Shown: positions 31,248 through 55,659 of the stretch, one piece after another
How the letters are laid out: each line of letters begins with the position of its first letter
Position numbering within the stretch: position 1 is the stretch's first letter
IMG/VR virus record: IMGVR_UViG_3300029288_004108
Span: 1-64,000 of that record
Direction: 5' to 3' (one strand)
DNA: 64,000 bases
DNA from: a virus
Taxonomy: Duplodnaviria; Caudoviricetes
Program-made: the position numbers and the translations under genes
The notes under the pieces: model-generated
The model's input: the letters and a program-made list of their open reading frames with translations, nothing else
Database searches by the model: none
What the model was told of the DNA's origin: nothing

Positions 31248-31682
31248 CTACGACGGAGCTTCAGTAGCGGTACCTGAGTTCATTGTTACAGGTCCACTGA
31301 TCTTAATAGTAACGTCGGCAGTAATCTTATCATCTGTCGGAATGGTAATAGGACATTCTGTTACCAAACCTTCAAATTCTAATGTAGTTAACTCTGCATC
31401 TGAAAGACAGATTTCATAGAAGTGAGAATTAGGATCCTCGAAATCGTCCTTAAATGCATCGTAGGTAGCTCTGGTGAAGTTCATACTGAGGGAAATTGTT
31501 CCTGCATCCCTAAAGCCAGCAATGAACTCCCGATAACCACCAGTGGAATCCAGTGACGTTACGTCAATGAAATCCCTTGTCATTGTCGGACCGGTGATAG
31601 AATTTATTTCTGCCAGATTAGCCCAAGCTGAACCACTCCAGCGACGAAATTGTGTTCCTACCCCTGATACTGCATTACTCAT
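31248..31682 (-). CDS. Major tail tube protein
   Basis: IDVTSLDSTGGYREFIAGFRDAGTISL, TADVTIKISG. AAGGAGGT upstream. Confidence 0.88.
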   Translation of the reverse strand: MSNAVSGVGTQFRRWSGSAWANLAEINSITGPTMTRDFIDVTSLDSTGGYREFIAGFRDAGTISLSMNFTRATYDAFKDDFEDPNSHFYEICLSDAELTTLEFEGLVTECPITIPTDDKITADVTIKISGPVTMNSGTATEAPS

Positions 31683-31721: not shown

Positions 31722-32123
31722 TTACCTTCTCTGAATGTCAAAATTTATGACAAAATGAGCAAGGCCGTTGTCATCCCAAGTCATGAACGTTGGTCCATTC
31801 TTACAAGCAACAACGCTATATAAAGTTCCATTCCATGTCTCCTGTGCCCGGCCATGGAGAGAACTAATTATATTCTGAGCCAAATCCATCGCTTCCCGGT
31901 AATCAGAGTTACGAAGTCTGATCTGTACGGATGGGTAATAATATGCTCCTTCTGATTTTCCTGCCAAAGACATACTTGGAGGATACCCGTAACTATCCAA
32001 TATGACAACAGAGTTTTTTGGAGTAGTCGGTTCTTTACCTACGAAAAGAGTAGTTCCAATGACAAGTCCGAGACTTGTATCGGCAACTAACATGGCAGCA
32101 ATATCAACTGAAGTAGCATTCAT
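31722..32123 (-). CDS. Tail terminator-like protein
   Basis: YPSVQIRLR, HFVINFDI. Located before the tail tube gene. Confidence 0.7.
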   Translation of the reverse strand: MNATSVDIAAMLVADTSLGLVIGTTLFVGKEPTTPKNSVVILDSYGYPPSMSLAGKSEGAYYYPSVQIRLRNSDYREAMDLAQNIISSLHGRAQETWNGTLYSVVACKNGPTFMTWDDNGLAHFVINFDIQRR

Positions 32124-32689
32124 TTTACTGTAGCATTTTTCTTTATCGTATCAATTATCTTGTTCCTATTTTTCTTAAAAGCTGCTTCCAACCATTTTCC
32201 TCCTGACCCTGGTCTCGACCAATTAACATCAGGGTGAGTCCCTTCCATCTCATGCACAAACAAAGCATAGTTAGCAGAATAACCCATCATAACAATAGGG
32301 CCTCGTTTTGCAAGAGCATTAACAGCTGCTTTTGCTCCTCCTACGATTGCTGTGTGTTGTGCTCTCATATCCTTTGCTTTTGCCCCGGTCTTTGGATTCT
32401 TTTTGAAATGACCTGATAAACTATCTCCATGTTCCCCTTCAGCTGATACAACAAACCAACTTGCCCGGAGATTACCAGTATCAACAGGAGTAAGTGGAGA
32501 TTCATTTTCTGTAGCATTCCTAATCAATACAGCTGATTCAATCAGTCCCTTAGAAGTACGATCTTTAATTCCAAGGATTTGAACATTGAGATTTTTTAAC
32601 ACCTCATCCAACCCGGTGATAGTTGTCTGATTATATCCTCCGAGATGACCAACACTTCTTTGTCCAAATCCTCTTAGTCGCTTTGCCAT
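32120..32689 (-). CDS. HK97 gp10-like neck/tail completion protein
   Basis: TPVDTGNLRAS, YALFVHE, KWLEAA. Confidence 0.78.
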   Translation of the reverse strand: MAKRLRGFGQRSVGHLGGYNQTTITGLDEVLKNLNVQILGIKDRTSKGLIESAVLIRNATENESPLTPVDTGNLRASWFVVSAEGEHGDSLSGHFKKNPKTGAKAKDMRAQHTAIVGGAKAAVNALAKRGPIVMMGYSANYALFVHEMEGTHPDVNWSRPGSGGKWLEAAFKKNRNKIIDTIKKNATVK

Positions 32690-32690: not shown

Positions 32691-33101
32691 TTATGTTAAC
32701 CAAGGTGTTAAAAATGCTTTTCGTAAAAATACAGTATTTGAACCAACTGCAGGTGTCTTTTCAAATCTTTTAATTATATGAGCTCCCACAATTTTATGAG
32801 GATCATAAAAGCTACCACTGCTATCACTGCTATCTTCCAAATCAGTCAATGAACCAAGATACAGAAATCCTTCTTCATCCAAATCCTGATTGACAAAAAC
32901 TATTGCCCTACAAATATCCTGATAACCAATAACCTGGTTCCCGGTAATGGTTCCAAGCACCTGAGCTTTTTCTTCCCACCTACATACAATTTCCACAGGA
33001 TCATCAAATGTAATAGAACCATAACCATCTTCCTGAGGATTCCCCCAATAGACAGCAGTCTGTACTAATCTTGATGTTATGAAATCTGCTATACTCATCA
33101 C
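32691..33101 (-). CDS. Head closure/stopper protein
   Basis: QTAVYW, DGYG...FDDPVEIVCRWE. Position in the neck module. Confidence 0.7.
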   Translation of the reverse strand: MMSIADFITSRLVQTAVYWGNPQEDGYGSITFDDPVEIVCRWEEKAQVLGTITGNQVIGYQDICRAIVFVNQDLDEEGFLYLGSLTDLEDSSDSSGSFYDPHKIVGAHIIKRFEKTPAVGSNTVFLRKAFLTPWLT

Positions 33102-33478
33102 TCGAAACTTTTAACTGCATATATTGATGCTGCTTTCAAACCGGTCTTTGCAATTAACCCTGATGGATCAAGAGCAAGTAGGAGTTGTCCGTAGGGGGTA
33201 GATTCAAAACCTTTCCCCCACTGTCCGGCGTACTTTATCCTTGCATCTCCGATCTGCTCCTCCATAGCAACCCGGGAAGTCGTACTGGCTATGATGTGAG
33301 CAACATAACAGGCTTGAATCTTTGCAAGTAAAGTATCACTGATTGTCCCGGTATAATATTCATATACCTTTGTAAGTATCAAATCGACTGTTTCCAATAA
33401 AACATTGACATAACCTTCACCAAGACTTGAGTCCTGCATCAGATCAGCTACATCATCTGTTGTTGCTAATACGGCCAT
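33098..33478 (-). CDS. Head-tail connector/adaptor
   Basis: YVAHIIA, EEQIGDARIKY, STPYGQ. AAGGAGGT upstream. Confidence 0.72.
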   Translation of the reverse strand: MAVLATTDDVADLMQDSSLGEGYVNVLLETVDLILTKVYEYYTGTISDTLLAKIQACYVAHIIASTTSRVAMEEQIGDARIKYAGQWGKGFESTPYGQLLLALDPSGLIAKTGLKAASIYAVKSFE

Positions 33479-34178
33479 ATTTTACCTCCTTTTCTTTCTT
33501 ACGTGTTGTTTCCAATAATGGATCAATATAATTGAATACTGATGGCTTCCATCGCAGTCGGAGCCAATCGAGTGTTTCATACAACTGGGAATAATCTCCA
33601 TAAACTAATCTCTCAGGATACACTACTTTACAATCCAGTCCTTCCGTGATCATCTCCACAAACCGCTTTTCATATTCATGAACCAACCATAACCACCCTT
33701 CCTTCTCAGACGAAATCCCTACGGCTTTCCTTTTATCGGGATCCTTGAAGGCTTGCATATATCCTGTCTTTTGACAAGATTCCACTATATCTGCTGTTCT
33801 CCTGCGAACGATTACCCATTTAGCATGAGGGTAGGCTGAGTGCCATACAGCCCAAATGAGAGCTGCTCTACTGCTTTTATAAAACCATTCCCCTTTTTCA
33901 TATCCTTCTCTTTCAAATATCTCATCTACAGAATCCTTCCAGGTAAGTGGAATTTTTATATGTTGTTTATCCGGTAGTGGGTATTGTCCCATTTCATCAG
34001 CCCAAATACTTGCAAGGTAAGGTTTTTCAAGTACCTCCTTTATAGCATCATTTTCATTTACCCCTTTATACCCGGACATACTTCCACCAAATGCTCCACA
34101 ACGATTTATCACTCCTGCAATCATGGAAGCTCCTGATCGTGGGACACCTGTAACTATTATTGGAGGACGTTCTATCAT
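33453..34178 (-). CDS. Sulfotransferase family protein
   Basis: PIIVTGVPRSGASM (PAPS-binding loop type), WVIVRR, VYPERL. Confidence 0.75.
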   Translation of the reverse strand: MIERPPIIVTGVPRSGASMIAGVINRCGAFGGSMSGYKGVNENDAIKEVLEKPYLASIWADEMGQYPLPDKQHIKIPLTWKDSVDEIFEREGYEKGEWFYKSSRAALIWAVWHSAYPHAKWVIVRRRTADIVESCQKTGYMQAFKDPDKRKAVGISSEKEGWLWLVHEYEKRFVEMITEGLDCKVVYPERLVYGDYSQLYETLDWLRLRWKPSVFNYIDPLLETTRKKEKEVKYGRISNNR

Positions 34179-35440
34179 GCTCTGTATTTATTTCGCACCA
34201 TTACTCTTTCTGCCATTTTTTCACTATCCGGAACAACCCGGACTTTCTGCTGAGGATGTCGGCGATAGTGAGCAAGTATTGACGGACAATACCCCAGTTT
34301 CAATCCTGCTTTGAAACAACGTAGACTAAATTCATACTCCTCCATTGTGTTTAATGACTCGTCAAATGTACCTATTTTTTCAAATACTTCCTTACGATAC
34401 ATTAAAGTTGCTGAATGAATATAATTCTTTACAAGCATATCACGAAGTGTGGGATGCTCTATTTTAGGTTTATATAATATCCGATCAGACTTATATGAAT
34501 AAAATTCCTCTGCCCACCCATGAATAAAATCAGCTCCGGTGCTTTCAAAAGTCCTGATGGAATCCTCAATACAGTTTGGAGAGAGCATATCATCTTCATG
34601 TAAATAACGAATGTAATCTCCTTCCGCCTGTGGGAGGACTTTATTAAAGTTTGCCGGCCAATTTCCACTACCCTGTCCAAGTAATAACTGAACACCTTTC
34701 GGCACACTGTCAATAGCATCCTGGAGCCATCCTCTGTCCACTTTGTAGGGAATAATTACAGTTACTAACCTGTTGAAGAACACTCTTTGTTGCACGTAGT
34801 GATTTACCCAATCTAAACCTATTGCCTGTAATATACGGGGTTTCCCGTGGAAACAGATAAGATTGGCTCCGTGGGGGATGCTATCTAACAGTTGCCTGCT
34901 CCTTGGTTTAAAATCATATATGGTGTTTGTAATGTTTTGCCAAAATAAATCTGCTTGTATAACTGTCCGTAAATAAGTATCCATACGCTTCCCCGTAGGA
35001 GCTTTGAAGGATTGCCAAACCTTCTTTATCTTCTCCGATTCGGCAGGGAACCAAACCAAACCAGTAGCCAACTGCCCTACCTGCCAAAAGTCTTGGAGTG
35101 TAATAAACTTTTTACGATCAGGAATGATATCAATAAGGCGTTCCAGAGAGTTGATTACAGCGGTATCTAAATCAATGTAAAGGAACGGTCGGTATTGTTC
35201 CATTGCAGGAGAGTAGAGTTCCATACGAGACCATGTACCGGGGAGAGTAGTCTGTAAAGGAATTACTTCAAATCCCTGCAGGTCATAATGAGTAGAGGCT
35301 TTATCCCACATGCAGATAATTCGTGGACGAACAGGAGATTGCCATTTTCCATTAATGTGTCGGGCAATCAGCTGGACATCTCCCATCGAGAAATCTCCTC
35401 CTGAACGTAATACAAGCATTATGGTTTCTCTCTTTTTCAT
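34175..35440 (-). CDS. Two-domain glycosyltransferase (GT8-like plus GT2-like)
   Basis: WSRMELY, LYIDLDTAV, ICFHGKPR. Then VTVIIPYK, YLHEDD, EEYEFSLR. Confidence 0.85.
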   Translation of the reverse strand: MKKRETIMLVLRSGGDFSMGDVQLIARHINGKWQSPVRPRIICMWDKASTHYDLQGFEVIPLQTTLPGTWSRMELYSPAMEQYRPFLYIDLDTAVINSLERLIDIIPDRKKFITLQDFWQVGQLATGLVWFPAESEKIKKVWQSFKAPTGKRMDTYLRTVIQADLFWQNITNTIYDFKPRSRQLLDSIPHGANLICFHGKPRILQAIGLDWVNHYVQQRVFFNRLVTVIIPYKVDRGWLQDAIDSVPKGVQLLLGQGSGNWPANFNKVLPQAEGDYIRYLHEDDMLSPNCIEDSIRTFESTGADFIHGWAEEFYSYKSDRILYKPKIEHPTLRDMLVKNYIHSATLMYRKEVFEKIGTFDESLNTMEEYEFSLRCFKAGLKLGYCPSILAHYRRHPQQKVRVVPDSEKMAERVMVRNKYRA

Positions 35441-36264
35441 ATCTTCCCCAGTAAATCCGTTACAGCATGCTCAAGTTGTTCTTTTGGATTAAGCCATGTT
35501 TTGGAAAGCAGATAATTCTTTTCCATTGCTATCTTTGCTTTCCGGTAATCGTCCGGAGTCAACTGATTACATACTTCCACAATCTCCTCTATATTATTAA
35601 CCCTGATCATACCAGCAGGATCAAAATACTGCTCAATATTTGAACAACCATAATATATTGGAAGAGTATGTGATTGGAAACAATCCAAAAGCTTTTCTGA
35701 AAAGTAATTCCGGATTGACGTATTTTCAATAGCTATATGGAACATTGAATCAAACAATGGTTCCTTTGATGCTCCCAGTATCAATTCCCCTTCATAATTT
35801 ACTTCTGTCCACGGGACAAAGGTATGCCAAAACTTAGCATTTCCACTCAGATAAAATCTCTTTGGAACTGTTATCCTATCACGATTCTTCCAAACCTGAT
35901 GACGCAATTCATACCCTTCCATCTTAGAATCACTCTTCCCACCAACAACAGTAGATACTGAGAAATGCTTCCGTGGAGATTTGTAATTGATTACCCACGG
36001 TTTTGTCATATGAAATTTTATAGCCTTTAAATTAGACTTGAGTAGCTCGTTATGAAAAGTAAACAGATAAGAATAATATTCCGGATGCTTCTTTACCAAT
36101 CTGTATAATAGACCTTTTCTTGGTTCTTCCAATACCTGAATACGGATATTTCCACGCTGTACTCTCGAACGGTTCAATTCATCTATGTAAACATCCACAT
36201 CCTTGTCTGAGTAAACCTCAAACGGGACGGGATTATTACCATAGTGAAATCTTACCTTTTTCAT
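35437..36264 (-). CDS. GT10 (alpha-1,3-fucosyltransferase-like) glycosyltransferase
   Basis: FHIAIEN, YFSEKLLDCF, PIYYG. Confidence 0.82.
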   Translation of the reverse strand: MKKVRFHYGNNPVPFEVYSDKDVDVYIDELNRSRVQRGNIRIQVLEEPRKGLLYRLVKKHPEYYSYLFTFHNELLKSNLKAIKFHMTKPWVINYKSPRKHFSVSTVVGGKSDSKMEGYELRHQVWKNRDRITVPKRFYLSGNAKFWHTFVPWTEVNYEGELILGASKEPLFDSMFHIAIENTSIRNYFSEKLLDCFQSHTLPIYYGCSNIEQYFDPAGMIRVNNIEEIVEVCNQLTPDDYRKAKIAMEKNYLLSKTWLNPKEQLEHAVTDLLGKI

Positions 36265-36755
36265 ACCTTTGCTACTAATACATCTTTTTCAACATAACCA
36301 TCTTCCAAATAAAACTGATATGCCTGATTGATCTTTGTTATTTTGTGTCGGAGAATATCGGTATTGAATCCACATTTTTCCTTTTTCCAGTCCCTGAGAT
36401 CATCAATCAGGAGAGTGTGAGTCTTAACAGGATGGTTCCGAATAATTTCCAATTCCTGAAGTAAAGGAGATTTTCCATTTCCTTTGTGAGCATCAAGCCA
36501 GAAAGTAACAGGTTCTTCTATATATCTTAATAACACTCCCAGCACTTTTACTGTATCTCCAAGAAGTAGATGGACATCCGGGTGATCCTTAAATCTTTCC
36601 TGGCAGTGATTATATCTCTCAGGGTCTATCTCAATAGAGTAAACAATCTCAAACCCTTCATCCAGTGCCTGTTGAATCCCATCGCCATAATTGGAACCGG
36701 TCTCAACAAAAACCCTATTTAAGTATTTTCCAAATAATCCCTTAGTCGCTGACAT
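36261..36755 (-). CDS. SAM-dependent methyltransferase-like protein
   Basis: FVETGSNYGDG, SIEID, FWLDAH, LLIDD. Confidence 0.72.
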   Translation of the reverse strand: MSATKGLFGKYLNRVFVETGSNYGDGIQQALDEGFEIVYSIEIDPERYNHCQERFKDHPDVHLLLGDTVKVLGVLLRYIEEPVTFWLDAHKGNGKSPLLQELEIIRNHPVKTHTLLIDDLRDWKKEKCGFNTDILRHKITKINQAYQFYLEDGYVEKDVLVAKV

Positions 36756-37560
36756 AACTCCTTATTTTATCTTTCCAATAATTAAAAGTTAATTTCTCCT
36801 TATCCCATTTTCCTTTCTTATACAATTCCCATATATTATCAAGAATTTCTTTTGTAACCTCTTCCCATTCACTTACGTATACTATAGGTAAATCATTATA
36901 AAACCATGTATTAATACCTTTCTTTACAATCGGTATAGCTCCCATGTAGAGTGTTTCCCAAAGGCGGTGAGTATCTATACCATTTCCATCAGGACAGAAT
37001 ACATATTTATGATTGTAAATATTATTCAAATATTCATCAAATCCTACTCCATTAACTCCATGGAAAGATGTAACCCAAGGTTCTTTTTCAAACAAATCAT
37101 ACAACGGCTGTCGTTCCTTTGGATTGGTTTTTACATTGGAATTAAGATATACAAGATTCTTGTATTTCCTTGGTATTTTCAACCAAGCTTCCATCTTCTC
37201 TTTCTTCCGGATATTCTTAAACCACTTATCATTTTCCAACCCTATTGGGATCGACTCTACCTTAGGATTAGTAGTATTTACATTTTGAGTAAACCAATGA
37301 ATAACATTATCCGGAACCTGGAAAGAATCATCTATATTTACATCACAATTATGAGTAACAATAACAAACTCACACTTTAATCCTTTGATTTCCTCAAACA
37401 GCTGACGGACATACATTGTATGAGTATAAACAATATTCCTTTCCTTTAAAGCACAAGGACAATAAGTATTTTCCAAAGGGTTGCAATCTTTAACTCCCTT
37501 TGGATAGTAAACAAGATCAGCTACCCCTACAAATTTTTCTCCTGTAATCCAATCCATCAT
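36742..37560 (-). CDS. Exostosin/GT47-like glycosyltransferase
   Basis: FCPDGNGIDTHRLWETLYMGAIPIV. Confidence 0.78.
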   Translation of the reverse strand: MMDWITGEKFVGVADLVYYPKGVKDCNPLENTYCPCALKERNIVYTHTMYVRQLFEEIKGLKCEFVIVTHNCDVNIDDSFQVPDNVIHWFTQNVNTTNPKVESIPIGLENDKWFKNIRKKEKMEAWLKIPRKYKNLVYLNSNVKTNPKERQPLYDLFEKEPWVTSFHGVNGVGFDEYLNNIYNHKYVFCPDGNGIDTHRLWETLYMGAIPIVKKGINTWFYNDLPIVYVSEWEEVTKEILDNIWELYKKGKWDKEKLTFNYWKDKIRSYVSD

Positions 37561-38219
37561 GTTACCCGTTTACGATTTTTAAACAAACAATTTGTTAATC
37601 CTTCTTTACGGTTTCCCAATAAACCACTCCCAATGAGTAAATCAAATCCATGTTTATCAAGATACTGTTTTACCTCTGCAAATAAATGGTCACCAGTATA
37701 ATAATGTTCAAACACTACTTCCGTGATTATATATTGTACAGTAGATAGGTAATCTCCCAAACCTTCGAACACTTCTATTTCCACTCCTTGTACATCCATG
37801 CAAAGGAGATTGATCCTGTCCAGTCTGACCTGTCGCATAAATGTATCCAGTCGGGTAGCTTCAACAAGAGTCTTTCTTTGGAAAAATTCATTTTGATTGT
37901 CCCTATGCCAAAGTAAAGAAGAAGCTCCAATATTTTTATCTACACTCCTTTCCATATCAGTTGGAAAGAAATCCACCATTCCATCCAGATTGTAAACAGC
38001 TTTTTCAACAAGGGTAATAAATGGATTATGTTGCAGATTTTGTTTGCAGAGAGCGATGGATTCCGGATTACATTCAAACGTGTATAATTTTTCAGGATGA
38101 TAATATTTCCAAAGCTCAACCGTATCCAACCCATCCCTGCTACCACATTCAATAATCGTTCTTACCCTCTCAGGATTTATCCGGTTTAAGAATTTTCTAT
38201 TTAAGTATGAACTATTCAT
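37557..38219 (-). CDS. FkbM-family methyltransferase
   Basis: IIECGSRDG, FECNP, MDVQGVE, EVVF. Confidence 0.85.
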   Translation of the reverse strand: MNSSYLNRKFLNRINPERVRTIIECGSRDGLDTVELWKYYHPEKLYTFECNPESIALCKQNLQHNPFITLVEKAVYNLDGMVDFFPTDMERSVDKNIGASSLLWHRDNQNEFFQRKTLVEATRLDTFMRQVRLDRINLLCMDVQGVEIEVFEGLGDYLSTVQYIITEVVFEHYYTGDHLFAEVKQYLDKHGFDLLIGSGLLGNRKEGLTNCLFKNRKRVT

Positions 38220-39105
38220 TACTCATGTATAAGTGAAGATTCTTTGAATGAATATGTAAATTATTAATCTTTACATCTTTGCAATCATACCTGAAGTAAG
38301 GGACTTTCCTTCCGTCTCCATTTTTCCAAATAACAGTATAATCCAGATGTGCCCTAAGTAATTGTCCGATGTAATGATCTTCTGGTTTTACTCCCGGAAT
38401 ACCATCAGGAGTTCCCCCAACATACTGCCCCCACGAAGCCGGATCAAATATTGATTGAAATTTATCAAAACCAACAGAGCACTCCGCAAATGGTAATGTA
38501 GGTAATGGAACCATCAAACCCGGGTATTCTTTGGTATATACCCTCATCAGGGTCATTTCATTTACCATATCCATTCCATAACGACGACGGATTTCCCGGA
38601 CTTTATATTGATGTAATAGTCCAAGAATGAAAGTAGTCATGTGAGAAAGTGCTTTCGGATTTTTAATAAACATCATTCCTGTCATCACTTTGTCCGGACC
38701 ACCGTAGGTAATAGCAAGATTTTGATAAGAATGAATAAATATAGGGTGATAAGATTCAATATCAAAGTAAATCAGTACATCATTTTCAAAATGATAAACA
38801 TCATGTAAATTCCTGGTAGTTATAAAATTTGCTATATACATTAATCTGGTAGTGGTGATTGTCCAAAAATCATTTTCCCCTCTACCATAAAGAACTTCAA
38901 AAGTATGAATATCATCCGATGTACATTCCCGTTTATCTACAACATTTATATTATAGAGGGAGAACACCGGGTCACTCATCCAAATATGATCAGTAATGAA
39001 ATAAACAGTAACGTTTGGATTAAACAAACGGAATTGCTTGAAAGTATATTTCAAATAATCCGGTAAACTTCCTCCACTATGGAACATCACGACTGTCATA
39101 ACCAC
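38212..39105 (-). CDS. Putative glycosyltransferase
   Basis: YHFENDVLIY (DxD-like), FDPASWGQYVGG, NLHIHSK. Glycan-cluster context. Confidence 0.6.
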   Translation of the reverse strand: MVMTVVMFHSGGSLPDYLKYTFKQFRLFNPNVTVYFITDHIWMSDPVFSLYNINVVDKRECTSDDIHTFEVLYGRGENDFWTITTTRLMYIANFITTRNLHDVYHFENDVLIYFDIESYHPIFIHSYQNLAITYGGPDKVMTGMMFIKNPKALSHMTTFILGLLHQYKVREIRRRYGMDMVNEMTLMRVYTKEYPGLMVPLPTLPFAECSVGFDKFQSIFDPASWGQYVGGTPDGIPGVKPEDHYIGQLLRAHLDYTVIWKNGDGRKVPYFRYDCKDVKINNLHIHSKNLHLYMSNE

Positions 39106-39833
39106 GAGTGCATTGTTAAAAGATCATTATTTGTATGACGGAAAGTTGATACATAATTTCTTATCTCATCATCAGTCCACCTACGTTTTTTCCAGCGATG
39201 ACAAACACTTACATTTTTGTAGGTATAAGCATTAGGCCAATATTTTGATACAAAATTACCATAAAGTTCATATTCAGAAAATCCACTTCCTTCATTCATC
39301 TGATTGATCACTTCCACACAATTATTAAAGAACTCTTCCGGAGTCATCTTCTTTTCATTGAGCAAATATTGAATCATACCCCTCTTGAAAAACATTAACT
39401 CCGATATAAATGAATGAGGATAAATCCGGTCGAGATCCAATACAGTTTTCATCAAATGGAAATATGGAAGATGATGTTGGTCTCTCCCGAGAAAGAAACA
39501 AGGAGAAGCCGGTTCTATTTCAATCGGCTTATTTATTATTGTATCAGCATCAACTACAAGATAATTATTTGTAGTAACCTGCTGAAAGAGTTTTATGAAT
39601 TGTTGTCGATACCATCCCTGACGGGAAGTCATCTTAATCTTTGAAAAATCAAAATCAATTACTTCTTCATCCCGGTGTGTATCAGCTTCCACCCAAATAT
39701 ATTCCTCCGGAATTGCTACCGGAGCTATCAAATGATATTTATGAATACCCTTGATATGAAAATTAATGGATTCCAACACAAACGGAAGTTTGTTAAAATC
39801 CTTTTGGGAAACGGTTATTAATACATCAAACAT
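39096..39833 (-). CDS. Putative GT-A glycosyltransferase (DUF6492-like)
   Basis: WYRQQFIKL, LVVDADT (DxD), FISELM, SEYELYG. Confidence 0.7.
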   Translation of the reverse strand: MFDVLITVSQKDFNKLPFVLESINFHIKGIHKYHLIAPVAIPEEYIWVEADTHRDEEVIDFDFSKIKMTSRQGWYRQQFIKLFQQVTTNNYLVVDADTIINKPIEIEPASPCFFLGRDQHHLPYFHLMKTVLDLDRIYPHSFISELMFFKRGMIQYLLNEKKMTPEEFFNNCVEVINQMNEGSGFSEYELYGNFVSKYWPNAYTYKNVSVCHRWKKRRWTDDEIRNYVSTFRHTNNDLLTMHSWL

Positions 39834-40605
39834 CAGCTGATAATTTTATCCAGTCAGCAGGAAAGTTATTTCTTTTAGCCCTATCCAGTCGGGTTATCCA
39901 GAAATCAGGAGTAACCACAACTTTATCAGGATTGGTATTAAGTAGAGCAGCCCACCAGGAAAATGTTGAATTTGCTATGATCTGATGTTTACATAACCGC
40001 AGCAATTCAAAATCCAGGTAGTATTGTAAATGCACAAATGTTATCTTCCTATCAAAATAATCCTCTATGAAATGTCTTTTACACCAAGCAATATCATCAG
40101 AGAAGATATACAATGGTCCATCAACCATGCTTATTGCCCGGGCATAATAACTGAAAGGTAATGTTGGAATGGTATCACTTGTCAGGTAATCATCCCTACG
40201 GATATGAACCCCAATAGAATTTTCCAAACGTATCTGCTCAAGCAAAGCATAATACTCTTCCGTATGAACCTGTTCCTTTAACCAAACTTCCCTTTGAAGC
40301 ATTGGAAGTATATCTTTAAAGTATTCCATATACTGCCAATATCCAAAGAAGTTCTTTCCATCCATTTTTTGGTAGGAAAGATCAAATGTAGGACGATGTT
40401 TTGAGTCAGTAATAGTCTGGGCTCCCACAAAAGGAGAAAAGGCTAATTCCAAAAGGAAATTGCCTAACATATATTCCCTATGTTTACTTTTCCCGAAGTT
40501 AGATATATCATACCGGACAACGATTCCATTCTCTTGCATCTGTCGACCAAAAGCATATTGGAAAAGTTGATTTCCCAGTCCACCCATTAATCTAACTACG
40601 TTCAT
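39826..40605 (-). CDS. GT11 alpha-1,2-fucosyltransferase-like glycosyltransferase
   Basis: GGLGNQLFQYA, GVHIRRDDY, FSDD, IIANSTFSWWAA. Confidence 0.92.
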   Translation of the reverse strand: MNVVRLMGGLGNQLFQYAFGRQMQENGIVVRYDISNFGKSKHREYMLGNFLLELAFSPFVGAQTITDSKHRPTFDLSYQKMDGKNFFGYWQYMEYFKDILPMLQREVWLKEQVHTEEYYALLEQIRLENSIGVHIRRDDYLTSDTIPTLPFSYYARAISMVDGPLYIFSDDIAWCKRHFIEDYFDRKITFVHLQYYLDFELLRLCKHQIIANSTFSWWAALLNTNPDKVVVTPDFWITRLDRAKRNNFPADWIKLSADV

Positions 40606-41305
40606 CGAGAATTTCTTTTACAGTCAACTTACGGAACTGTGTAATAGCAGATGTAGGTGATGCATTTAAGATTTCAATTCCCATTGCCTGAGCATCACGA
40701 GCAATGTCTTCAAATCCTCTCAGGTGACGTTCAAACGGAAGCTTTCTCCGTTTCCTTTCATCACCGACATTTATAACACCTCTCCCATATAGATTATGCC
40801 AGTGCTGACGATTATCACCATTTAGTGACATATCAAACCCGAGTAGGATAATTCGCTTTGCCCCGGCATGAGCTGCAACACTCACTGCGGCAGCTCCGGA
40901 GTTCCCATTCCATGAAACAAGATTAGGAGCAGAACTTATACCTCTTGGTTTCCTTCCGTCCCTCCCCAAAAACTTAATCCATGTTTCCTTTGAGGCTCCA
41001 TTATGACATGTAATTTTCATTCCCGGGAACACTGCTAACCGAGTCCGGTGAGTCTGATAAAAACCACTATCTCCAAAGAACACCATGTCAATCCAGTCAC
41101 CAATCAAATACGCTACATTTATACCTATTACATGTTTATCATGTAAAGGTTTCATGTAATCGGAATAGACGCTTGGAGGGGATGTACCTGCAAGTACATT
41201 ATCAACAACCTCTTTTGGAATATCGAATTGGGTAAAGACCGATGGTCCACCCCCTAATATCCAAACGTCTCCACCTTCCCATATTCGTGGGACTCGCCAG
41301 TTCAT
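40592..41305 (-). CDS. Maf/DUF115 (MptE-like) glycosyltransferase-type protein
   Basis: WILGGGPS, VIGINVA, GNSGAAA, IILLGFDM, ILNAS. Confidence 0.68.
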   Translation of the reverse strand: MNWRVPRIWEGGDVWILGGGPSVFTQFDIPKEVVDNVLAGTSPPSVYSDYMKPLHDKHVIGINVAYLIGDWIDMVFFGDSGFYQTHRTRLAVFPGMKITCHNGASKETWIKFLGRDGRKPRGISSAPNLVSWNGNSGAAAVSVAAHAGAKRIILLGFDMSLNGDNRQHWHNLYGRGVINVGDERKRRKLPFERHLRGFEDIARDAQAMGIEILNASPTSAITQFRKLTVKEILDERS

Positions 41306-41646
41306 CCGGCTAAGTCTTTAGCAAACTGTTCAGCTGCTTCTTTCTTTAAGGCCTTTTCATTGATAACCTTCCCTTTGCTATCAACAACATCAAACCATAC
41401 TTTGCTTTCTCCTCTTGGTTTGACTTCATAAGCTGACTTGGTTATCTCAATAGGCGGAGGAGGTGGAGGAGTAGGAAGCTCTTCCAATGGAACGCAGAGA
41501 TCACGGAAACCTTTTGGAATTTCTTCCACATAGGCAGTAAATACCTGCCCGGGTTTGATGAGGTGTCCTTTGAAAACAAATCCACCACCACCAGTTTTCT
41601 TCCAACGAATTGGTCTATTCTCGTCTGTCATTCTTTTTCTTTCCAT
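41302..41646 (-). CDS. Hypothetical protein downstream of the major capsid gene
   Basis: 114 aa, Pro-rich linker, ALKKEAAE C-terminus. Confidence 0.6.
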   Translation of the reverse strand: MERKRMTDENRPIRWKKTGGGGFVFKGHLIKPGQVFTAYVEEIPKGFRDLCVPLEELPTPPPPPPIEITKSAYEVKPRGESKVWFDVVDSKGKVINEKALKKEAAEQFAKDLAG

Positions 41647-41689: not shown

Positions 41690-42799
41690 TTATGCAAGAT
41701 GAACAATCCCGGTCTTACCGTTCTGGTCGGAACGGATCTGAGGAACCTGGATGGTCATCACTTTGAATTTGCTTATCATACCACCTTCGGTATTCCATTC
41801 AACGTTCTGCATAGCCATTCCCTGAACGAGGCGGACTACATCAGAAGTCATCTGAACCATAAGGACGTTGTCATCCGGCAGGGTATCGACAACTTTGATA
41901 CCTTTGATACCGTCGATCTTCATGATCCTTTCCCTGATGGTTGTTCCAGGGGTCTGAGTATCATAATCGTCATCAAGAACGGTTTCATAATCGGTCGGAA
42001 TATACAACTGCCACGGACCATAGTGGTAAGCCGCAATTGAAGCTTTCTTCATCTCCAGAACATCCTGAAGAATACCGGCAGCGGTCATTGCTGAAGCATC
42101 CCAAGGAATACTTAGGTTGACCAGGTTACGGTCAGGATGATTGATGTAACTGTAAATCGAATTACGGCTACGGGAGTCGGTTGCTCCATAACTGTAGGTG
42201 ATGTCTGTGAAGAGCATAGCTTCCAGTTTCTCAAGGATCCTACGGGCAGCTCTTTCTGCAGATGTGGTATCGAGTGGGTTCCCAAGATTCCTGCTTGCAG
42301 CAAGTACCCTTGCATTGATTTCATAATCAACATGGATTATGGGAATCGGCAGGTAGTTGTGCTGGAATACAGGACGGTCGTTATTTCCACGAGTTACACC
42401 ATCCATGGTAACAACAGCCTCCATAGCATCACTTACGTCATGCCATTCAAGGACAGTTGTCCCAAGACCATTACCAAGATTATAGATCAGACCAGCTGCT
42501 CTTAAATCTTCAAAGCCACCAAGGCGCTGACGGGATACTTCCATAATGGCTGTATCCAGCTGTTTCCACTCATCGTGACGAAGAGTAGCAGTGGTGTTTG
42601 TCTGAATTGTAGCCCAGTTTTCCGGTTTCTTAGGATCTCCACCACGGTAAACCGTCATGTAATTTCCCCAATTTCCGTTTTTATCCTGAGCCATGTACGG
42701 GCGCATACGACCAAGGTTCAGAGAACCATTGGCTGAGAGAGTATTAGCAAGAATACCTATGCCACCGTTCGGAGCGATTAAATCAACATTTACTTCCAT
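41690..42799 (-). CDS. Major capsid protein (HK97 fold, encapsulin/Linocin-like)
   Basis: PIPIIHVDYEINARVLAAS, GPWQLYIP, VPQIRSD. Follows the protease and decoration genes. Start at ATG 42799 (alternative 42826). Confidence 0.85.
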   Translation of the reverse strand: MEVNVDLIAPNGGIGILANTLSANGSLNLGRMRPYMAQDKNGNWGNYMTVYRGGDPKKPENWATIQTNTTATLRHDEWKQLDTAIMEVSRQRLGGFEDLRAAGLIYNLGNGLGTTVLEWHDVSDAMEAVVTMDGVTRGNNDRPVFQHNYLPIPIIHVDYEINARVLAASRNLGNPLDTTSAERAARRILEKLEAMLFTDITYSYGATDSRSRNSIYSYINHPDRNLVNLSIPWDASAMTAAGILQDVLEMKKASIAAYHYGPWQLYIPTDYETVLDDDYDTQTPGTTIRERIMKIDGIKGIKVVDTLPDDNVLMVQMTSDVVRLVQGMAMQNVEWNTEGGMISKFKVMTIQVPQIRSDQNGKTGIVHLA

Positions 42800-42818
42800 T
42801 TTCTTACGGTATTTAGCA

Positions 42819-43307
42819 TTAAACAATTCTTACTTTGATCCTCTTATTGACCCCCAGTCCACCACCTACATCCTGACCAGATGAATCAGCACTGGCATCC
42901 ATCTCTTCGAGTGAAATACCTACGATGACATTGGTCTGAACATTAGCTGTAACAGATGCTTCATCTGCTGCGTGAGCAATCAGATAACCAGCACCATTGG
43001 ATTCAAGTAGTGTCCCTTCAGCAACATCCTGACCATCGGCCAGAATCCCGAGAACGACATCACCAGGAGCAGGAAACCAAACCTGCACCTTATCACCAGC
43101 TGCATAGGCATCGTCAATCCCTTTGCCCTGAAGTTCATCTTCAAGAGCAAACATTTTAGGACCAACGTTACCTCCAGCGGTAGCATGGACTTTGACTTCA
43201 TTATCAGTATTAAGCTCCAGCAAACTTCCCGGAAGGATAGCTGCATCAGCTACATACTCATCAATGTTGTCAGAGTACTTTTTAATCTTAATCGTGTTGT
43301 ACGACAT
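42819..43307 (-). CDS. Head decoration/cement protein
   Basis: AAILPGSLLE, FALEDELQG, VQVWFPAPGD. Located between protease and MCP. AAGGAGGT upstream. Confidence 0.7.
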   Translation of the reverse strand: MSYNTIKIKKYSDNIDEYVADAAILPGSLLELNTDNEVKVHATAGGNVGPKMFALEDELQGKGIDDAYAAGDKVQVWFPAPGDVVLGILADGQDVAEGTLLESNGAGYLIAHAADEASVTANVQTNVIVGISLEEMDASADSSGQDVGGGLGVNKRIKVRIV

Positions 43308-43324: not shown

Positions 43325-44605
43325 TTACTTTTTAGGTTCTACTCCAGCAGGATACAGTGGTTCTACCGTAGAGGTAGAAACATTGGTCTGGAAACCAGTG
43401 TTGAGTGAATAATCAACCACTTCTTCCTTCTTAACTGACTGAGCCAATTTTTCCAAATGAGCATCAGACATTGTTTTGAGTTCTTCATCAGTCCAAACAT
43501 CTTTGGTGTTTGCCTGAATCTTTTGGATCCATCCATCTCTCCTCTCCTTCAGCTGACGCTTCCCGAAATCGAGAGCAGCCTGATCTTCAGGAGTGAGTTT
43601 ATTGACCTCAACGGTCTTTGTTACCTCTTTTTCCACAACTTTCTCAACTTCAATGGGTTTAGCCATTTTATCGAGTATTGCTTCATTTAAGGTCTCCAGC
43701 ATTTCCCTGTCGTCTTCAGTATATTTTCCCTGACTGTTTGCAATCAGTTCATCTACCTTCTTTTTGACACAAGGAGTGCATTTTACAGCATTTTCTGCCA
43801 TTTCTTGTACCTCCTTTTTATTAATATTAAACATCGGTTTTGGATCATCCTCTTTATCAGAATGATCACTATTAGCTCTGATACCACAGCCATCTGCCAT
43901 TGAACAAGCACCAACACTGCCGGGCAGAAGTGCTAAGTGATCTGGTCTATGATTTCTGGCTATTGCATCATAATGCTCTCCATTCCATTCTCCCTCTGTG
44001 AAATCATCCTCAGTAAACATACCAAGACTAACTTCTAACGGTTCTCCATTCTTGATATGATTAAAGGCTTCCAGAGAAATCTCTTGTAGTTTCAAGGAGT
44101 CCAACCAAGCTTCCGCCATAAGTTTATTTCCTTCTACTCTCGTATTATATACTGTCCCTACTACTTGATTCTCTGCAATCAGTGGATCATTAGCAGAAAC
44201 ATTTACCCCATCAACTTCAGGGTGATTAATTACAACAGGTCTCCCATTCCAAGACTGAGGAATTTTTCCTAACTCTGTTATTTCATGAAGTAATGGTCCA
44301 TGACTTCCATGATGAACTCCTTCTACCATCATAACAACAGGAACTATCAAATGCTCTCTTCCTTGGTAGATCCTTTGTTTTGTCATGTACTTAGCACTCT
44401 GTTGAGTCAGGACAATGACTGTCTTACTTTCATTATCTACAACACCATTTGCCTGACGGATAGCAGAAGCAGCACAGGTTTCATCTGTCCCTCCTTTTGC
44501 AATACAAGATTGAAGAGCAGAGTTTGCTATATGGACCCATTGTTCCTTCTGTTTATCGGAAAGACCTTTTTTGTGAGATTCTACATCCTGTTTACTCCAC
44601 GGCAT
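43325..44605 (-). CDS. Prohead protease/scaffold (DUF2213-like)
   Basis: VVINHP, EVSLGM, NHRPDHLALLP, GACS. Acidic helical C-terminus. AAGGAGG upstream. Confidence 0.75.
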   Translation of the reverse strand: MPWSKQDVESHKKGLSDKQKEQWVHIANSALQSCIAKGGTDETCAASAIRQANGVVDNESKTVIVLTQQSAKYMTKQRIYQGREHLIVPVVMMVEGVHHGSHGPLLHEITELGKIPQSWNGRPVVINHPEVDGVNVSANDPLIAENQVVGTVYNTRVEGNKLMAEAWLDSLKLQEISLEAFNHIKNGEPLEVSLGMFTEDDFTEGEWNGEHYDAIARNHRPDHLALLPGSVGACSMADGCGIRANSDHSDKEDDPKPMFNINKKEVQEMAENAVKCTPCVKKKVDELIANSQGKYTEDDREMLETLNEAILDKMAKPIEVEKVVEKEVTKTVEVNKLTPEDQAALDFGKRQLKERRDGWIQKIQANTKDVWTDEELKTMSDAHLEKLAQSVKKEEVVDYSLNTGFQTNVSTSTVEPLYPAGVEPKK

Positions 44606-44618: not shown

Positions 44619-45077
44619 TTATCTTTTCAGGTTTAAATATACTGGTTTTCTTGAATATATGATATCTCTCAACGAATAATTTATTTCATGTTTAATGAAA
44701 ACTATGTTTTTGAACATTAGAAACATATTATCATCTCCCCCAAAATGGCTAAATCCTTCGGTTTTATAATCTCCATCTCTTCCTGATGCAACCAATATGA
44801 CTGGTATATTTTCATGATCAATATAATTCCTGATACCTTCCCATGCCCGGAAGAAGAATGGAGTAATGGTATAGACTATTGGAATCTTTCCTGATAGAGC
44901 CATTCCTACTGCTATATCAACTGCCACCTGCTCGGCTGCTCCTACATTAAAGAATTGCTTTGGAAATTCCTCACTGATCTTATCAAACATTCCGTAACCC
45001 AAATCAGCTGTAATCAGGACAATGGAAGAGTCTTCTTTCATTAATTCATACAAATCCGTTGCAAACTTCTTTCTCAT
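44619..45077 (-). CDS. Transketolase-like pyrimidine-binding subunit (short)
   Basis: ITADLG, NVGAAEQ, GMALSG, YIDHE, HFG, PVYL. Confidence 0.85.
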   Translation of the reverse strand: MRKKFATDLYELMKEDSSIVLITADLGYGMFDKISEEFPKQFFNVGAAEQVAVDIAVGMALSGKIPIVYTITPFFFRAWEGIRNYIDHENIPVILVASGRDGDYKTEGFSHFGGDDNMFLMFKNIVFIKHEINYSLRDIIYSRKPVYLNLKR

Positions 45078-45652
45078 ATCTTTACATAATGAGCAGATAA
45101 ACCATCAAGTCCATACTCCTCTACATGAGTCTCTCTCACTCTGATCTGAGGCATTATGTGAACCACATTACTTATCATCTGCAAGTCTATCTTATCATAG
45201 GCGGAATAGCCATTCCAATTAAGATATATCAGCAAGTTATATACCTGATACTTTCTAATAACATTAGCTGCTTCCCAAATGGAACCTTCTGTGCATTCTC
45301 CATCCGATACCAAACACCAAACTTTCCTTTCCCTATCAGCCAAAGCCATTCCTACTGCTATTGGAAGCCCATGACCAAGACTACCCGTAGAACAATAGAT
45401 ATGAAAGTATTCCTCCCTTTCAGGATGAGTTCCAAATTTCTTAAATAACCACTCTGCATCATACTCATAGTACTTCTCCAACACTACATATAATGCTAAC
45501 CCTGCATGACCAGAGGATAAGATAAAAGGTTCATCTGCTCCTTTCTCCTGATATATCTCATCAATTATACCAACTGTCGTCAGATTACTCCCAAGGTGAG
45601 AAAGCCCGAGCCGGTGAGAAATATCAATTATCCTATCATGTAAAGCACTCAT
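45074..45652 (-). CDS. Transketolase-like ThDP-binding N-terminal subunit
   Basis: HLGSNL, ILSSGHA, TGSLGHG, SDGECTEGSIWEA (GDG-type motif). Confidence 0.87.
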   Translation of the reverse strand: MSALHDRIIDISHRLGLSHLGSNLTTVGIIDEIYQEKGADEPFILSSGHAGLALYVVLEKYYEYDAEWLFKKFGTHPEREEYFHIYCSTGSLGHGLPIAVGMALADRERKVWCLVSDGECTEGSIWEAANVIRKYQVYNLLIYLNWNGYSAYDKIDLQMISNVVHIMPQIRVRETHVEEYGLDGLSAHYVKI

Positions 45653-52062: not shown

Positions 52063-52072
52063 TAATATATAT

Positions 52073-55655: not shown

Positions 55656-55659
55656 CTTA

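Follow-up and report, generated by a model that had tools for sequence, protein, structure and literature searches.

The window analysed here comprises 64,000 nucleotides and belongs to the complete 77.6-kb genome of an uncultured tailed phage, a siphovirus. Ten co-oriented genes (g1 to g10), described in the first-pass annotation as a glycan assembly line, occupy positions 33453-41305 on the minus strand with all open reading frames intact. Their claimed insertion between the major capsid and neck genes is confirmed by head and tail genes identified on both sides. The upstream flank holds the protease/scaffold (43325-44605), head decoration (42819-43307) and major capsid genes (41690-42826), and the downstream flank a first (33098-33478) and a second adaptor gene (32691-33101) as well as Neck1 (32120-32689), followed by the connector, the major tail protein and the tape measure. 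The interval between the capsid gene and g1 contains s114 (41302-41646, minus strand), a small conserved ORF with a poly-proline linker that matches no family; it is kept in relatives lacking g1 or the entire island (e.g., L062, L064, L156) and probably lies outside the glycan system.

Neighbouring island genes overlap by 4-26 nt at each junction, and the overlaps run unbroken from s114 through the ten genes to the second adaptor gene, i.e., the proposed overlap-coupling within the late head operon holds. Neither promoter-like sites (53 vs. 64.8 expected) nor terminator-like sites (18 vs. 12.8 ± 3.1 expected) were rated as enriched. Given these junctions and the missing enrichment, RNA polymerase can arrive at the neck and tail genes only by way of the island. 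That is, judging from the gene arrangement, the island must be co-transcribed late with the structural genes. A chimeric assembly does not account for the block, because the same arrangement recurs on many independent contigs.

Maf is a flagellin O-glycosyltransferase and the closest structural match of g1 (40592-41305), a Maf/GT42-fold (DUF115) transferase of 237 aa. Its Maf/DUF115-like assignment is weak in Pfam (MptE/DUF115, E 0.002) but firm when based on phrog_4603 (E 2e-32) and on the AF2 model (pLDDT 95), which matches Maf (PDB 5MU5) with Z 14.7 and an rmsd of 3.5 over 192 residues and CstI/II with Z of about 11-12. The N- and C-terminal domains flanking the Maf core in 5MU5 are missing, such that g1 consists of the catalytic core only. 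Its GGGPS and LxGFD motifs and H168 are unchanged across 29 homologues.

Three further genes carry the families proposed for them. The product of g2 (39826-40605) belongs to GT11, the alpha-1,2-fucosyltransferase family (PF01531, 1.2e-21, 77.7 bits with a cut-off of 23.9; phrog_2644, 2e-35), and that of g8 (35437-36264) to GT10, the alpha-1,3/4-fucosyltransferase family, with residues 172-235 matching the GT10 C-terminal domain (PF00852, 8.8e-7, 29.2 bits, cut-off 23.9). For g5 (37557-38219), an FkbM-family SAM methyltransferase, the PF05050 match is above cut-off (1.4e-17) and accompanied by phrog_8156 (1.7e-17). The “other putative glycosyltransferase” g4 (38212-39105) is without match in Pfam and PHROG and belongs to no named family; it gains a GT-A fold from its AF2 model (mean pLDDT 64, better over the N-terminal 200 residues), for which all top structural matches are GT-A nucleotide-sugar transferases (LARGE1, Z 13.3; YeGT, 12.8; XXYLT1, 12.1; glycogenin, 12.0).

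Other calls are retained in weaker form. g3 (39096-39833) is a probable GT-A glycosyltransferase whose DUF6492 score is slightly below the curated cut-off (PF20102, 1.6e-4, 21.3 bits vs. 22.9) and which finds no PDB match by sequence, but its YLVVDAD segment with the D-A-D motif is conserved. For g7 (36261-36755), without a Pfam match, language-model neighbours among class I and rhamnosyl O-methyltransferases (0.92-0.93) and an invariant glycine-rich ETGSxxGDG motif serve as a lead towards a small class I SAM methyltransferase, i.e., the second methyltransferase is probable at best. The supposed GT8+GT2 fusion g9 (34175-35440) keeps its GT2 half, with residues 259-396 matching PF13632 and PF00535 and the C-terminal half matching PDB 5tze (3.6e-4). 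GT8 itself was not detected in its N-terminal half, which is tentatively GT-A-like given a phrog_1962 glycosyltransferase match (3.5e-24, residues 6-216) and a D-L-D motif. As a side observation, the language-model neighbours of g4 are viral clusters, and both g3 and g4 have neighbours among giant-virus clusters, which we treat as a lead only.

The call that had to be replaced is that of g6 (36742-37560) as GT47-like: its Exostosin/GT47 match is below cut-off, while its homology to GT114 is clear. Against the PBCV-1 beta-xylosyltransferase A075L (PDB 8q8i/8avq/8asa) we obtained E 2.3e-44 with phmmer and 4e-59 with a profile search. The A075L residues Asp73, Asn148, Arg158 and Arg208, whose catalytic roles are described in PMC11571054, align with D73, N140, R150 and R199 of g6, and all four are invariant across 9 phage homologues. 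The known role of A075L concerns the N-glycan on the major capsid protein of chloroviruses (PMC11571054). The early arm of the phage encodes a UDP-xylose synthase (UDP-glucuronate decarboxylase; E 1e-106 to human UXS1).

The last gene, g10 (33453-34178), is a PAPS-type sulfotransferase, usually terminal in such islands. Its match to PF13469 (Sulfotransfer_3, 8.8e-4) is below cut-off, but both PAPS-binding motifs are kept, with the 5'-PSB (T10, G11, R14, S15, G16) and 3'-PB residues (R125-T128, D130, S134) invariant in 17 homologues. Full-length matches are restricted to tyrosylprotein sulfotransferases and are weak (E 0.3).

The ten-gene limits of the island hold, but the system reaches further: beside the early-arm UDP-xylose synthase, Pfam and NCBIfam searches reveal a second sugar block of six genes (44619-49485, minus strand) between the MuF and protease genes. 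It encodes a GT2, an RfbH-like PLP dehydratase, a GNAT, a LegC/PseC-like aminotransferase and a split ThDP (transketolase-like) enzyme. The block is found in L001, L011, L013, L020, L023, L050 and L051 and missing from most other relatives.

None of the 16 sugar genes (ten island, six second block) encodes a hydrophobic segment. In agreement with the first-pass annotation, neither the island nor the whole 77.6-kb genome shows a flippase, a polymerase or another polytopic membrane protein, small holin-like ORFs excepted. Since lipid-linked intermediates primed by the host can likewise be substrates of soluble glycosyltransferases, an envelope target would be compatible with the missing membrane proteins. 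The enzymes might hence alter an envelope glycan of the host, be it O-antigen, capsule or the precursor of a protein O-glycan, while it is carried by host-primed lipids; the host flippase and ligase would export the product, and the phage would gain superinfection exclusion or progeny that do not stick to cell debris. This would fit the cytoplasmic glycosyltransferases of O-antigen and capsule loci, which are usually soluble or peripheral like the island enzymes, and the GT11, GT10, GT2, FkbM and RfbH-like enzymes typical of these loci. It would also suit a phage that is temperate by gene content, as its integrase indicates, and a cassette turnover at strain level resembling that of surface-polysaccharide loci. 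We nevertheless regard it as unlikely. The island is no moron with expression of its own near the attachment site but is translationally coupled to the late structural genes around it, and a surface change minutes before lysis would presumably replace few of the receptors already present. Furthermore, the genome encodes no membrane protein of the Gtr, Wzx, Wzy or acetylase type, the closest characterised relative of g6 works on a capsid-protein glycan, and the Maf-fold gene is fixed beside the capsid gene with a co-varying decoration loop, as detailed below.

The capsid gene of this phage is common to more than 500 uncultured IMG/VR contigs. Synteny in relatives is strong: g1 directly follows the capsid gene in 57/57 close relatives and in 49/55 of a more distant sample. 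The Maf-fold gene keeps this place across capsid identities from ~40% to 74%. What lies between g1 and the adaptor genes has a variable length of 0 to about 9 kb, is often sulfotransferase-terminated and turns over at strain level; complete capsid-to-adaptor islands, s114 included, span about 0.3-9.2 kb. The pool from which the cassettes are drawn counts at least 70 protein clusters, comprising glycosyltransferases, methyltransferases, sugar-nucleotide enzymes and sulfotransferases. Our best explanation is that the ten genes represent one allele of a hypervariable island for virion modification, located in the head module of a large uncultured siphovirus lineage. We found no published description of this island type. 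The claim of a scale beyond described phages stands in comparison with the phage cases consulted (Corndog has four such genes, PMC4351075), but within its own lineage the island is unexceptional.

Small alleles bear on a further explanation, in which neither virion nor envelope is modified. Bacterial toxin glycosyltransferases modify host cytoplasmic proteins, and the phage enzymes could likewise target such proteins for takeover or anti-defence, or modify a soluble oligosaccharide or metabolite; on this view, g1 and the sulfotransferase would act directly on proteins without any complex glycan. Islands with a sulfotransferase alone (L062, L156, L157, L167, L186) or with g1 as sole enzyme (L024) suggest that these enzymes can work without an island-built glycan. 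The tyrosylprotein matches of g10 and the TcdA/TcdB-like glycosyltransferase domains in the islands of some relatives point the same way. On the other hand, seven to eight glycosyltransferase domains together with sugar-nucleotide enzymes and a UDP-xylose synthase indicate a multi-sugar product, takeover genes are usually early and would not be expected at a fixed capsid-adjacent position, and no host target can be named, such that we give this explanation a small chance only.

Regarding acceptors, the head decoration protein carries a Ser-rich acidic C-terminal loop at residues of about 137-154 (D-A-S-A-D-S-S-G...; 42846-42899, minus strand), with the alignment consensus ALEAxDLSxSSGxxSS...RIKVRI. 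The loop accompanies canonical g1, while g1-less lineages are without it. Among 124 distinct rows, and with a threshold of at least 4 Ser set after the sequences had been inspected, canonical g1 coincides with loops of at least 4 Ser in 96 cases and fewer in 13, compared to 3 and 12 for absent or divergent g1. On the capsid tree, all 5-7 independent contrasts show the same direction and 0 the opposite one (sign test p 0.06-0.25, underpowered). One exception, L007, combines canonical g1 with a Thr-rich loop. Given this co-variation, the loop is our best candidate glycan acceptor. A second, weaker candidate would be the Ser/Thr/Gly-rich C-terminal tail of the major tail protein (...PVTMNSGTATEAPS; 31251-31292, minus strand), which provides no co-variation signal since all relatives, the island-less L034 among them, have such a tail in similar form.

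Taken together, the island enzymes probably, if far from certainly, build a custom glycan that covers the virus particle. This putative virion glycosylation is favoured by the co-transcription with late structural genes combined with the solubility of all enzymes, by the protein O-glycosyltransferase fold of g1, which as sole island enzyme of L024 can evidently act without an island-built glycan, by the homology of g6 to a chlorovirus capsid-glycan enzyme, and by the lineage-wide position next to the capsid gene. The cytoplasmic pathway of the first-pass annotation gains from the same observations while being unproven; host-surface mimicry or particle shielding as its benefit is speculation. 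We infer the following steps, including their order and donors. The g1 enzyme would use an activated donor made by the host to place the first sugar on Ser/Thr of a surface protein, with the decoration-protein loop as best candidate. The chain would be lengthened by the GT11, GT10, GT114 and GT2 enzymes and three GT-A-type enzymes, one step probably adding beta-xylose from UDP-xylose of the phage's own synthase. Two methyltransferases and the PAPS-dependent sulfotransferase would cap it, and the second block would contribute a further GT2 as well as an unusual amino-deoxy sugar. Against virion glycosylation count the donors, as neither a CMP-sugar synthetase nor a NeuB-type synthase (for g1) nor an APS kinase (for g10) was found in the phage, the flanking Maf domains missing from g1, the weak calls for g3, g7 and the N-terminal half of g9, the low power of the loop co-variation test, and the integrase, which may imply a lysogenic role of the island.

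Glycosylation of a modified DNA base had been offered as an alternative and finds no support here. Multi-sugar DNA glycans are reported from other phages (bioRxiv 10.1101/2023.12.21.572611), but a thymidylate-synthase-type hydroxymethylase was looked for in the phage and not found, the ten early genes scanned have replication and repair functions, and the island resides in the head module, with ~25 kb between it and the genes for DNA modification. Nor do known DNA glycosylation systems account for a Maf-fold enzyme or for capping by methyl and sulfate groups. To our knowledge, no DNA with glycosylated 7-deazaguanines has been described. We thus consider it highly improbable that the glycosyltransferases decorate phage DNA.

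Virion glycosylation by such genes was reported for the mycobacteriophages Che8, Corndog and Myrna (Freeman et al. 2023, as summarised in PMC12363180). There, too, the virion structural operon includes phage genes for soluble glycosyltransferases and an O-methyltransferase (see PMC4351075 for the layout of Corndog gp35-38); the enzymes are expressed during infection but absent from particles, and both capsid and tail tube are reported to be glycosylated. These phages of Actinobacteria have two to four genes rather than ten plus six and differ from the phage studied here, whose hosts are probably Bacteroidota-type anaerobes and which has other enzyme families (Maf/GT42 fold, GT11, GT10, GT114, sulfotransferase). 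They also differ from our lineage of more than 500 contigs, for which glycosylation is predicted, in its hypervariable cassette and implied sulfation. PBCV-1 (A075L/GT114, A064R, A111/114R) shares virus-encoded cytoplasmic, membrane-independent glycosyltransferases and methyltransferases, which yield a complex glycan with fucose, xylose and methyl-sugars on the major capsid protein (PMC11571054, PMC7826918). Homology to this machinery is demonstrated for g6 only, with its catalytic residues conserved. Whereas this eukaryotic giant virus bears N-linked glycans on Vp54, the Maf-fold candidate initiator and the Ser-rich candidate acceptor suggest O-linkage in the bacterial siphovirus.

Flagellin glycosylation islands (Magnetospirillum Maf, PDB 5MU5) resemble the phage island in that a DUF115-fold transferase is encoded next to a surface protein that self-assembles into a polymer, and in their strain-variable sugar-synthesis and tailoring genes. 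They differ in the target (flagellin vs. a proposed virion protein) and from the core-only g1, for which the phage encodes neither a nonulosonic-acid synthase nor a CMP-transferase as partner. Serotype-converting phages and O-antigen/capsule loci (GtrABC; Iap/Wzy-beta/acetylase of phage D3) share phage-borne sugar-modifying genes and strain-level turnover, but need prophage-expressed polytopic membrane proteins, which are absent here, where the genes sit inside a late operon. Finally, the Pseudomonas phages D3, PMG1 and PAJU2 (Detrevirus) contain, among their head-tail joining genes, an ORF annotated as alpha-2,3-sialyltransferase and a methyltransferase; the cryo-EM paper on the D3 capsid is silent on glycosylation. 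This ORF is a g1 homologue (23-37% identity) in the same capsid-to-tail slot with the methyltransferase nearby, within sets of 2-4 genes that, unlike the island described here, include no sulfotransferase or further glycosyltransferase families.

The virus record (77,650 bp, rated complete by CheckV, with the window as its first 64 kb) carries in its late arm, all on the minus strand, the terminase (61054-62568), the portal (50584-52095), a MuF-like minor head protein (49659-50699), a first block of sugar genes (44619-49485), the protease/scaffold gene (43325-44605), the head decoration protein (42819-43307) and the major capsid protein (41690-42826). There follow an ORF of 114 aa (41302-41646) and the ten-gene island (33453-41305, minus strand; genes g1 to g10, numbered from the capsid side), beyond which the arm continues with two head-tail adaptors, Neck1, the connector, the major tail protein, chaperones and the tape measure. 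The ten genes reported in the first-pass annotation are confirmed, with refinements to their family calls, and the gene layout shows that the glycosyltransferase (GT) genes do lie within the virion structural operon, as in mycobacteriophage virion glycosylation.

Starting with the 114-aa ORF and ending with the second adaptor gene, each gene overlaps the next by 4-26 nt. Consensus scans gave no excess of promoter-like sites (53 vs. 64.8 expected, for the sigma-70 consensus only, which is weak for a Bacteroidota-type host) and no enrichment of terminator-like sites (18 vs. 12.8 +/- 3.1 expected). Barring a non-sigma-70 promoter concealed within coding sequence, the island must therefore be transcribed together with the late structural genes. 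The G+C content is 0.34-0.35 at 36-40 kb and 0.40-0.46 in the flanks, which fits an exchange of cassette modules.

The first island gene, g1, matches phrog_4603 with an E-value of 2e-32 and, marginally, Pfam PF01973 (MptE/DUF115; 18.3 bits vs. a cut-off of 34.6). For its AF2 model, built from a 29-sequence alignment (pLDDT 95), the best structural match is the catalytic domain of Maf, a flagellin glycosyltransferase (5MU5 residues 261-514; Z 14.7, rmsd 3.5 A over 192 residues), with the GT42 sialyltransferases CstI/CstII ranking below (Z 10-12, rmsd 3.5-3.9 over 165-181 residues, 16-17% identity). GGGPS, LxGFD and H168 are invariant in the same alignment. That is, the earlier Maf/DUF115-like call is borne out by the fold as well as by the GxGPS and LxGxD motifs. 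With 237 aa, g1 comprises the catalytic core only, i.e., it aligns to the central domain of 5MU5 alone and lacks the N- and C-terminal flanking domains of Maf, the full-length form of which has ~630 aa. Characterised Maf relatives glycosylate a self-assembling surface protein.

Among the other genes, four calls of the first-pass annotation pass the curated Pfam cut-offs: GT11 for g2 (PF01531, 77.7 bits vs. 23.9), the GT10 C-terminal domain for g8 (PF00852, 29.2 bits vs. 23.9, over 64 residues only), FkbM for g5 and GT2 for the C-terminal half of g9. The N-terminal half of g9 shows a D-L-D motif and a PHROG glycosyltransferase match, with PF01501 (GT8) not among the Pfam matches at E <= 0.01, and g3 shows a DUF6492 match close to the threshold together with a conserved D-A-D motif. 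No sequence match was found for g4; its model, of modest confidence (pLDDT 64), matches only GT-A nucleotide-sugar transferases (LARGE1, YeGT, XXYLT1, glycogenin and LgtC, Z 11-13) and suggests a GT-A-fold glycosyltransferase. Language-model neighbours and a glycine-rich motif only point to g7 as a putative methyltransferase; an APS-kinase reading, suggested by weak rows at E 0.5, was rejected after a family-level search returned no APS kinase in the genome. Among PDB sequences, the profiles of g3, g4 and g7 gave no significant match, and profile-profile comparison of g3, g4 and g9 with one another detected no paralogy.

The sulfotransferase gene g10 scores below its Pfam cut-off (PF13469, 20 bits vs. 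27). Both its 5'-phosphosulfate motif (T10, G11, R14, S15, G16) and its 3'-phosphate motif (R125, R126, R127, T128, D130, S134) are fully or almost fully conserved across 17 homologues, and its sole full-length database matches are tyrosylprotein sulfotransferases, which are weak. Neither a protein search with g10 nor a nucleotide search with the island returned a match in 50,697 phage records.

For g6, the earlier label GT47-like has to be replaced: PF03016 reaches 18.1 bits (cut-off 33.4), and the gene is clearly homologous to the PBCV-1 beta-xylosyltransferase A075L (phmmer E 2.3e-44 with a single sequence, profile E 4e-59), the founder of CAZy family GT114, which was moved there from GT47 (PMC11571054). 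Residues 66-270 of g6 align with A075L chain residues 68-281, i.e., across the GT-B core. The catalytic base Asp73 of A075L and its donor-binding residues Asn148, Arg158 and Arg208 (PMC11571054) correspond to D73, N140, R150 and R199 in g6, which are invariant in 9 phage homologues. Far from g6, in the early plus-strand arm beyond the window (genome 73177-74127, or 10177-11127 of the genome piece L054), the phage encodes a UDP-glucuronate decarboxylase, i.e., a UDP-xylose synthase (UXS; E 1e-106 to human UXS1). This enzyme probably feeds a xylosyltransferase-like GT114 function of g6, such that both donor and transferase would be phage-encoded. Among the 50,697 phage records, g6 has two matches only, both uncultured, with a best E-value of 1e-19 (vs. 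2e-44 for A075L). As g6 is far nearer to the chlorovirus protein than to these records, one may ask whether genes have passed between phages and giant viruses, and the GT114 link suggests an enzyme pool common to both.

The capsid protein has distant cultured relatives only (Brevundimonas siphoviruses at 35%, haloarchaeal tailed viruses at 31%), while related capsid proteins are encoded on 531-543 IMG/VR stretches and 22 MAG contigs. The latter have mixed labels, with Bacteroidota/Bacteroidales holding the largest share, and clear chromosomal integration was seen on none of the 22. Comparing ~220 fetched loci, we find a recurring order of capsid gene, small ORF, g1, variable cassette, often g9 plus sulfotransferase, and adaptor 1. 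The synteny in relatives that had been proposed as a check is thereby observed, with a cassette of variable content, and the chimeric assembly considered earlier is ruled out, as the arrangement recurs on many independent contigs. g1 is present in 57/57 close relatives with enough downstream sequence and in 49/55 of a more distant sample (47 canonical and 2 divergent).

Between capsid gene and adaptor 1, the interval ranges from 264 bp (L034, no island) up to 9.2 kb. Cassette genes form at least 70 clusters, most prominently of GT2, methyltransferases, sugar-nucleotide epimerases/dehydratases, PseB-like, DegT, radical SAM, GT32, TcdA/B-like GTs and sulfotransferases. Content can differ sharply at 93-95% capsid identity (Jaccard 0.17-0.2), and one cassette type stays intact down to 75%. 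Since g1-g6, g9 and g10 are found together in locus L057 and g7-g8 in the L010 type, the island studied here looks like the union of modules found separately elsewhere.

At the lower end, the island consists of g1 alone in L024, and at least 6 loci (L062, L156, L157, L167/L169, L186, L061/L225) have sulfotransferase-only islands, i.e., capsid gene, small ORF, sulfotransferase and adaptor. Either enzyme can thus work without an island-built glycan. The former arrangement fits g1 being an initiator on protein; the latter hints that a lone sulfotransferase may sulfate virion protein side chains directly, with which the weak tyrosylprotein-sulfotransferase resemblance agrees. The conserved 114-aa ORF consists of two small domains, with a P-T-P-P-P-P-P-P linker between them that varies in length and composition among relatives. 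As relatives without g1 or without the island still have this ORF, it was discarded as a part of the glycan system.

Concerning acceptors, the head decoration protein has a variable loop (42846-42899) between two conserved strands, with the consensus ALEAxD-L-S-x-S-S-G-x-x-S-S...RIKVRI. Given 124 distinct capsid/decoration pairs and a serine threshold chosen after the data were seen, the loop has at least 4 Ser in 96 and fewer in 13 pairs with canonical g1, compared to 3 and 12, respectively, for pairs with no or divergent g1. The g1-less loci L034, L060, L061/L225, L062/L156, L157, L167 and L186 show a short Thr-rich loop or none. On the capsid tree, this reduces to 5-7 independent g1/loop contrasts; all informative ones are concordant and none is opposite, with sign test p-values of 0.06-0.25, i.e., too few contrasts to reach significance. 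In view of these few contrasts and the post-hoc threshold, we name the Ser-rich loop a candidate acceptor and not a result. The major tail protein gives no signal, since its Ser/Thr/Gly-rich C-terminal tail occurs in all relatives including the island-less one. DSSG was rejected as a sequon: its 5 occurrences all fall into morphogenesis proteins, and shuffled proteomes have on average 3.8 four-mers in at least 5 proteins. It is kept in 0/38 MuF and 1/28 adaptor 2 proteins and not in other proteins, apart from the decoration protein alone (8/50), and we consider it further only as part of the Ser-rich loop of that protein.

The sugar system extends beyond the island. The block between the MuF-like and protease genes (44619-49485) encodes a GT2, an RfbH-like PLP enzyme, a GNAT, a LegC/PseC-like aminotransferase and a two-gene ThDP enzyme, and including UXS there are ~17 sugar-related genes, nearly one fifth of the genome. 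Hydrophobic segments occur in 0/16 of the late-arm sugar proteins. Scanning the whole genome for polytopic membrane proteins such as a GtrA flippase, GtrB, a type-specific Gtr, Wzy or an acetylase yielded only small holin-like ORFs, and the tape measure is the sole ORF with at least 4 hydrophobic segments, such that the earlier statement on lacking flippase and polymerase genes extends to the whole genome. Gtr-type or O-antigen serotype conversion, in contrast, needs such proteins. Soluble GTs commonly work on lipid-linked intermediates that are host-primed and host-exported, and the phage has an integrase; both would suit enzymes acting on a host-envelope glycan. We nevertheless regard that target as improbable, given the island's position inside the late operon, the absence of Gtr/Wzy-type proteins, the Maf fold of g1, the GT114 link of g6 and the loop co-variation.

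With regard to donors, the complete phage genome gave no match to a NeuB/PseI-type synthase (PF03102) or a CMP-transferase (PF02348), with controls recovered, nor was an APS kinase found. The donor of g1, PAPS and GDP-fucose must therefore be host-derived. Nonulosonate-type genes are restricted to the LegC/PseC-like aminotransferase and a weak PseH-like GNAT. The first-pass annotation had also offered glycosylation of a modified base in phage DNA as an alternative, which is unlikely: no thymidylate-synthase-type hydroxymethylase (PF00303) was matched while controls were recovered, the island is far from the dpdA cluster, and the early genes scanned have replication and repair functions and are not neighbours of the GTs. 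That the enzymes act on a non-virion protein or make a soluble product is less probable than a virion target.

Overall, glycosylation of virion proteins by the island enzymes is the best available interpretation, which we lean towards while it is unproven. It draws on the forced late co-expression with head and neck proteins, the Maf-fold enzyme fixed beside the capsid gene, the homology of g6 to a capsid-glycan enzyme, the co-variation of g1 and decoration loop, and the mycobacteriophage precedent. To our knowledge, phage-encoded virion glycosylation has been shown only in few mycobacteriophages with two to four genes each, and we know of no report of sulfation for any phage particle. The earlier impression of a scale beyond known phage examples holds in terms of ten genes vs. 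two to four, but within its lineage the island is at the large end and not unique. In Corndog, the segment between portal and protease genes encodes one methyltransferase and three GTs (PMC4351075), and Che8, Corndog and Myrna are all reported to have glycosylated virions (as summarised in PMC12363180).

The phage island would resemble mycobacteriophage virion glycosylation and chlorovirus capsid glycosylation in its working, and follows a logic similar to flagellin glycosylation islands; with the giant algal virus machinery it has at least one enzyme family, GT114, in common. What sets it apart from all three is its enzyme set, the implied sulfation, its size, a minimal Maf-like core without flanking domains or nonulosonate pathway, and its hypervariability across a very large lineage of uncultured phages. 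Among cultured phages, the D3 group of Pseudomonas phages carries a g1 homologue (annotated as alpha-2,3-sialyltransferase) and a methyltransferase among the head-tail joining genes, e.g., in PMG1 (NC_016765.1, 5813-6409 and 8575-9192) and PAJU2 (NC_011373.1, 7780-8349 and 9109-9723). The g1 homologues of these phages are D3 orf7, PMG1_0008 and PAJU2 gp10. A full-text literature search returned neither a description of such an island nor an account of glycosylation in D3-like Pseudomonas phages.

A fuller model of virion glycosylation, which we put forward tentatively, is that more than 500 uncultured siphoviruses coat their heads, and perhaps tails, with a strain-specific, O-linked, methylated and sulfated fucose/xylose glycan. 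Assembly would take place in the cytoplasm on the Ser-rich loop of the decoration protein, with the first sugar added by the minimal Maf-like g1; the island would thereby serve as a 'serotype locus' of the virus particles, and sulfotransferase-only islands would sulfate virion proteins directly. If true, glycosylated particles would be common among environmental phages that infect Gram-negative anaerobes, and the glycosylation would be chemically elaborate including sulfation, and under diversifying turnover like bacterial O-antigens. This would bear on phage stability, adsorption and aggregation as well as on recognition by host and animal immune systems, and would change the reading of virome proteomics. 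The soluble, membrane-free enzymes and the cultured proxies D3, PMG1 and PAJU2 make the idea directly testable.

Some further genes are worth recording. A GIY-YIG/NUMOD3 homing-endonuclease-like gene (60259-61050, minus strand) lies immediately downstream of the large terminase gene, and an HNH endonuclease gene is found at 17115-17822 (plus strand). The lysis region is probably made up of a C1 (papain-family) cysteine peptidase-like gene, the DUF5675 gene after it (52865-54138, minus strand) and small multi-TM holin-like ORFs (55260-55947); for a C1 peptidase this is an odd neighbourhood. The early arm also encodes a fusion of a pentapeptide-repeat protein with DUF5758 (genome 67393-67863; L054:4393-4863), a possible DNA mimic or anti-defence candidate. 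Finally, a 669-aa protein (57113-59122, minus strand) is located between the terminase region and the integrase; its C-terminal part resembles the five-bladed beta-propeller families GH130, GH32 and GH43 (E 1e-5 to 1e-7), and it may be a glycan-degrading or glycan-binding phage protein.
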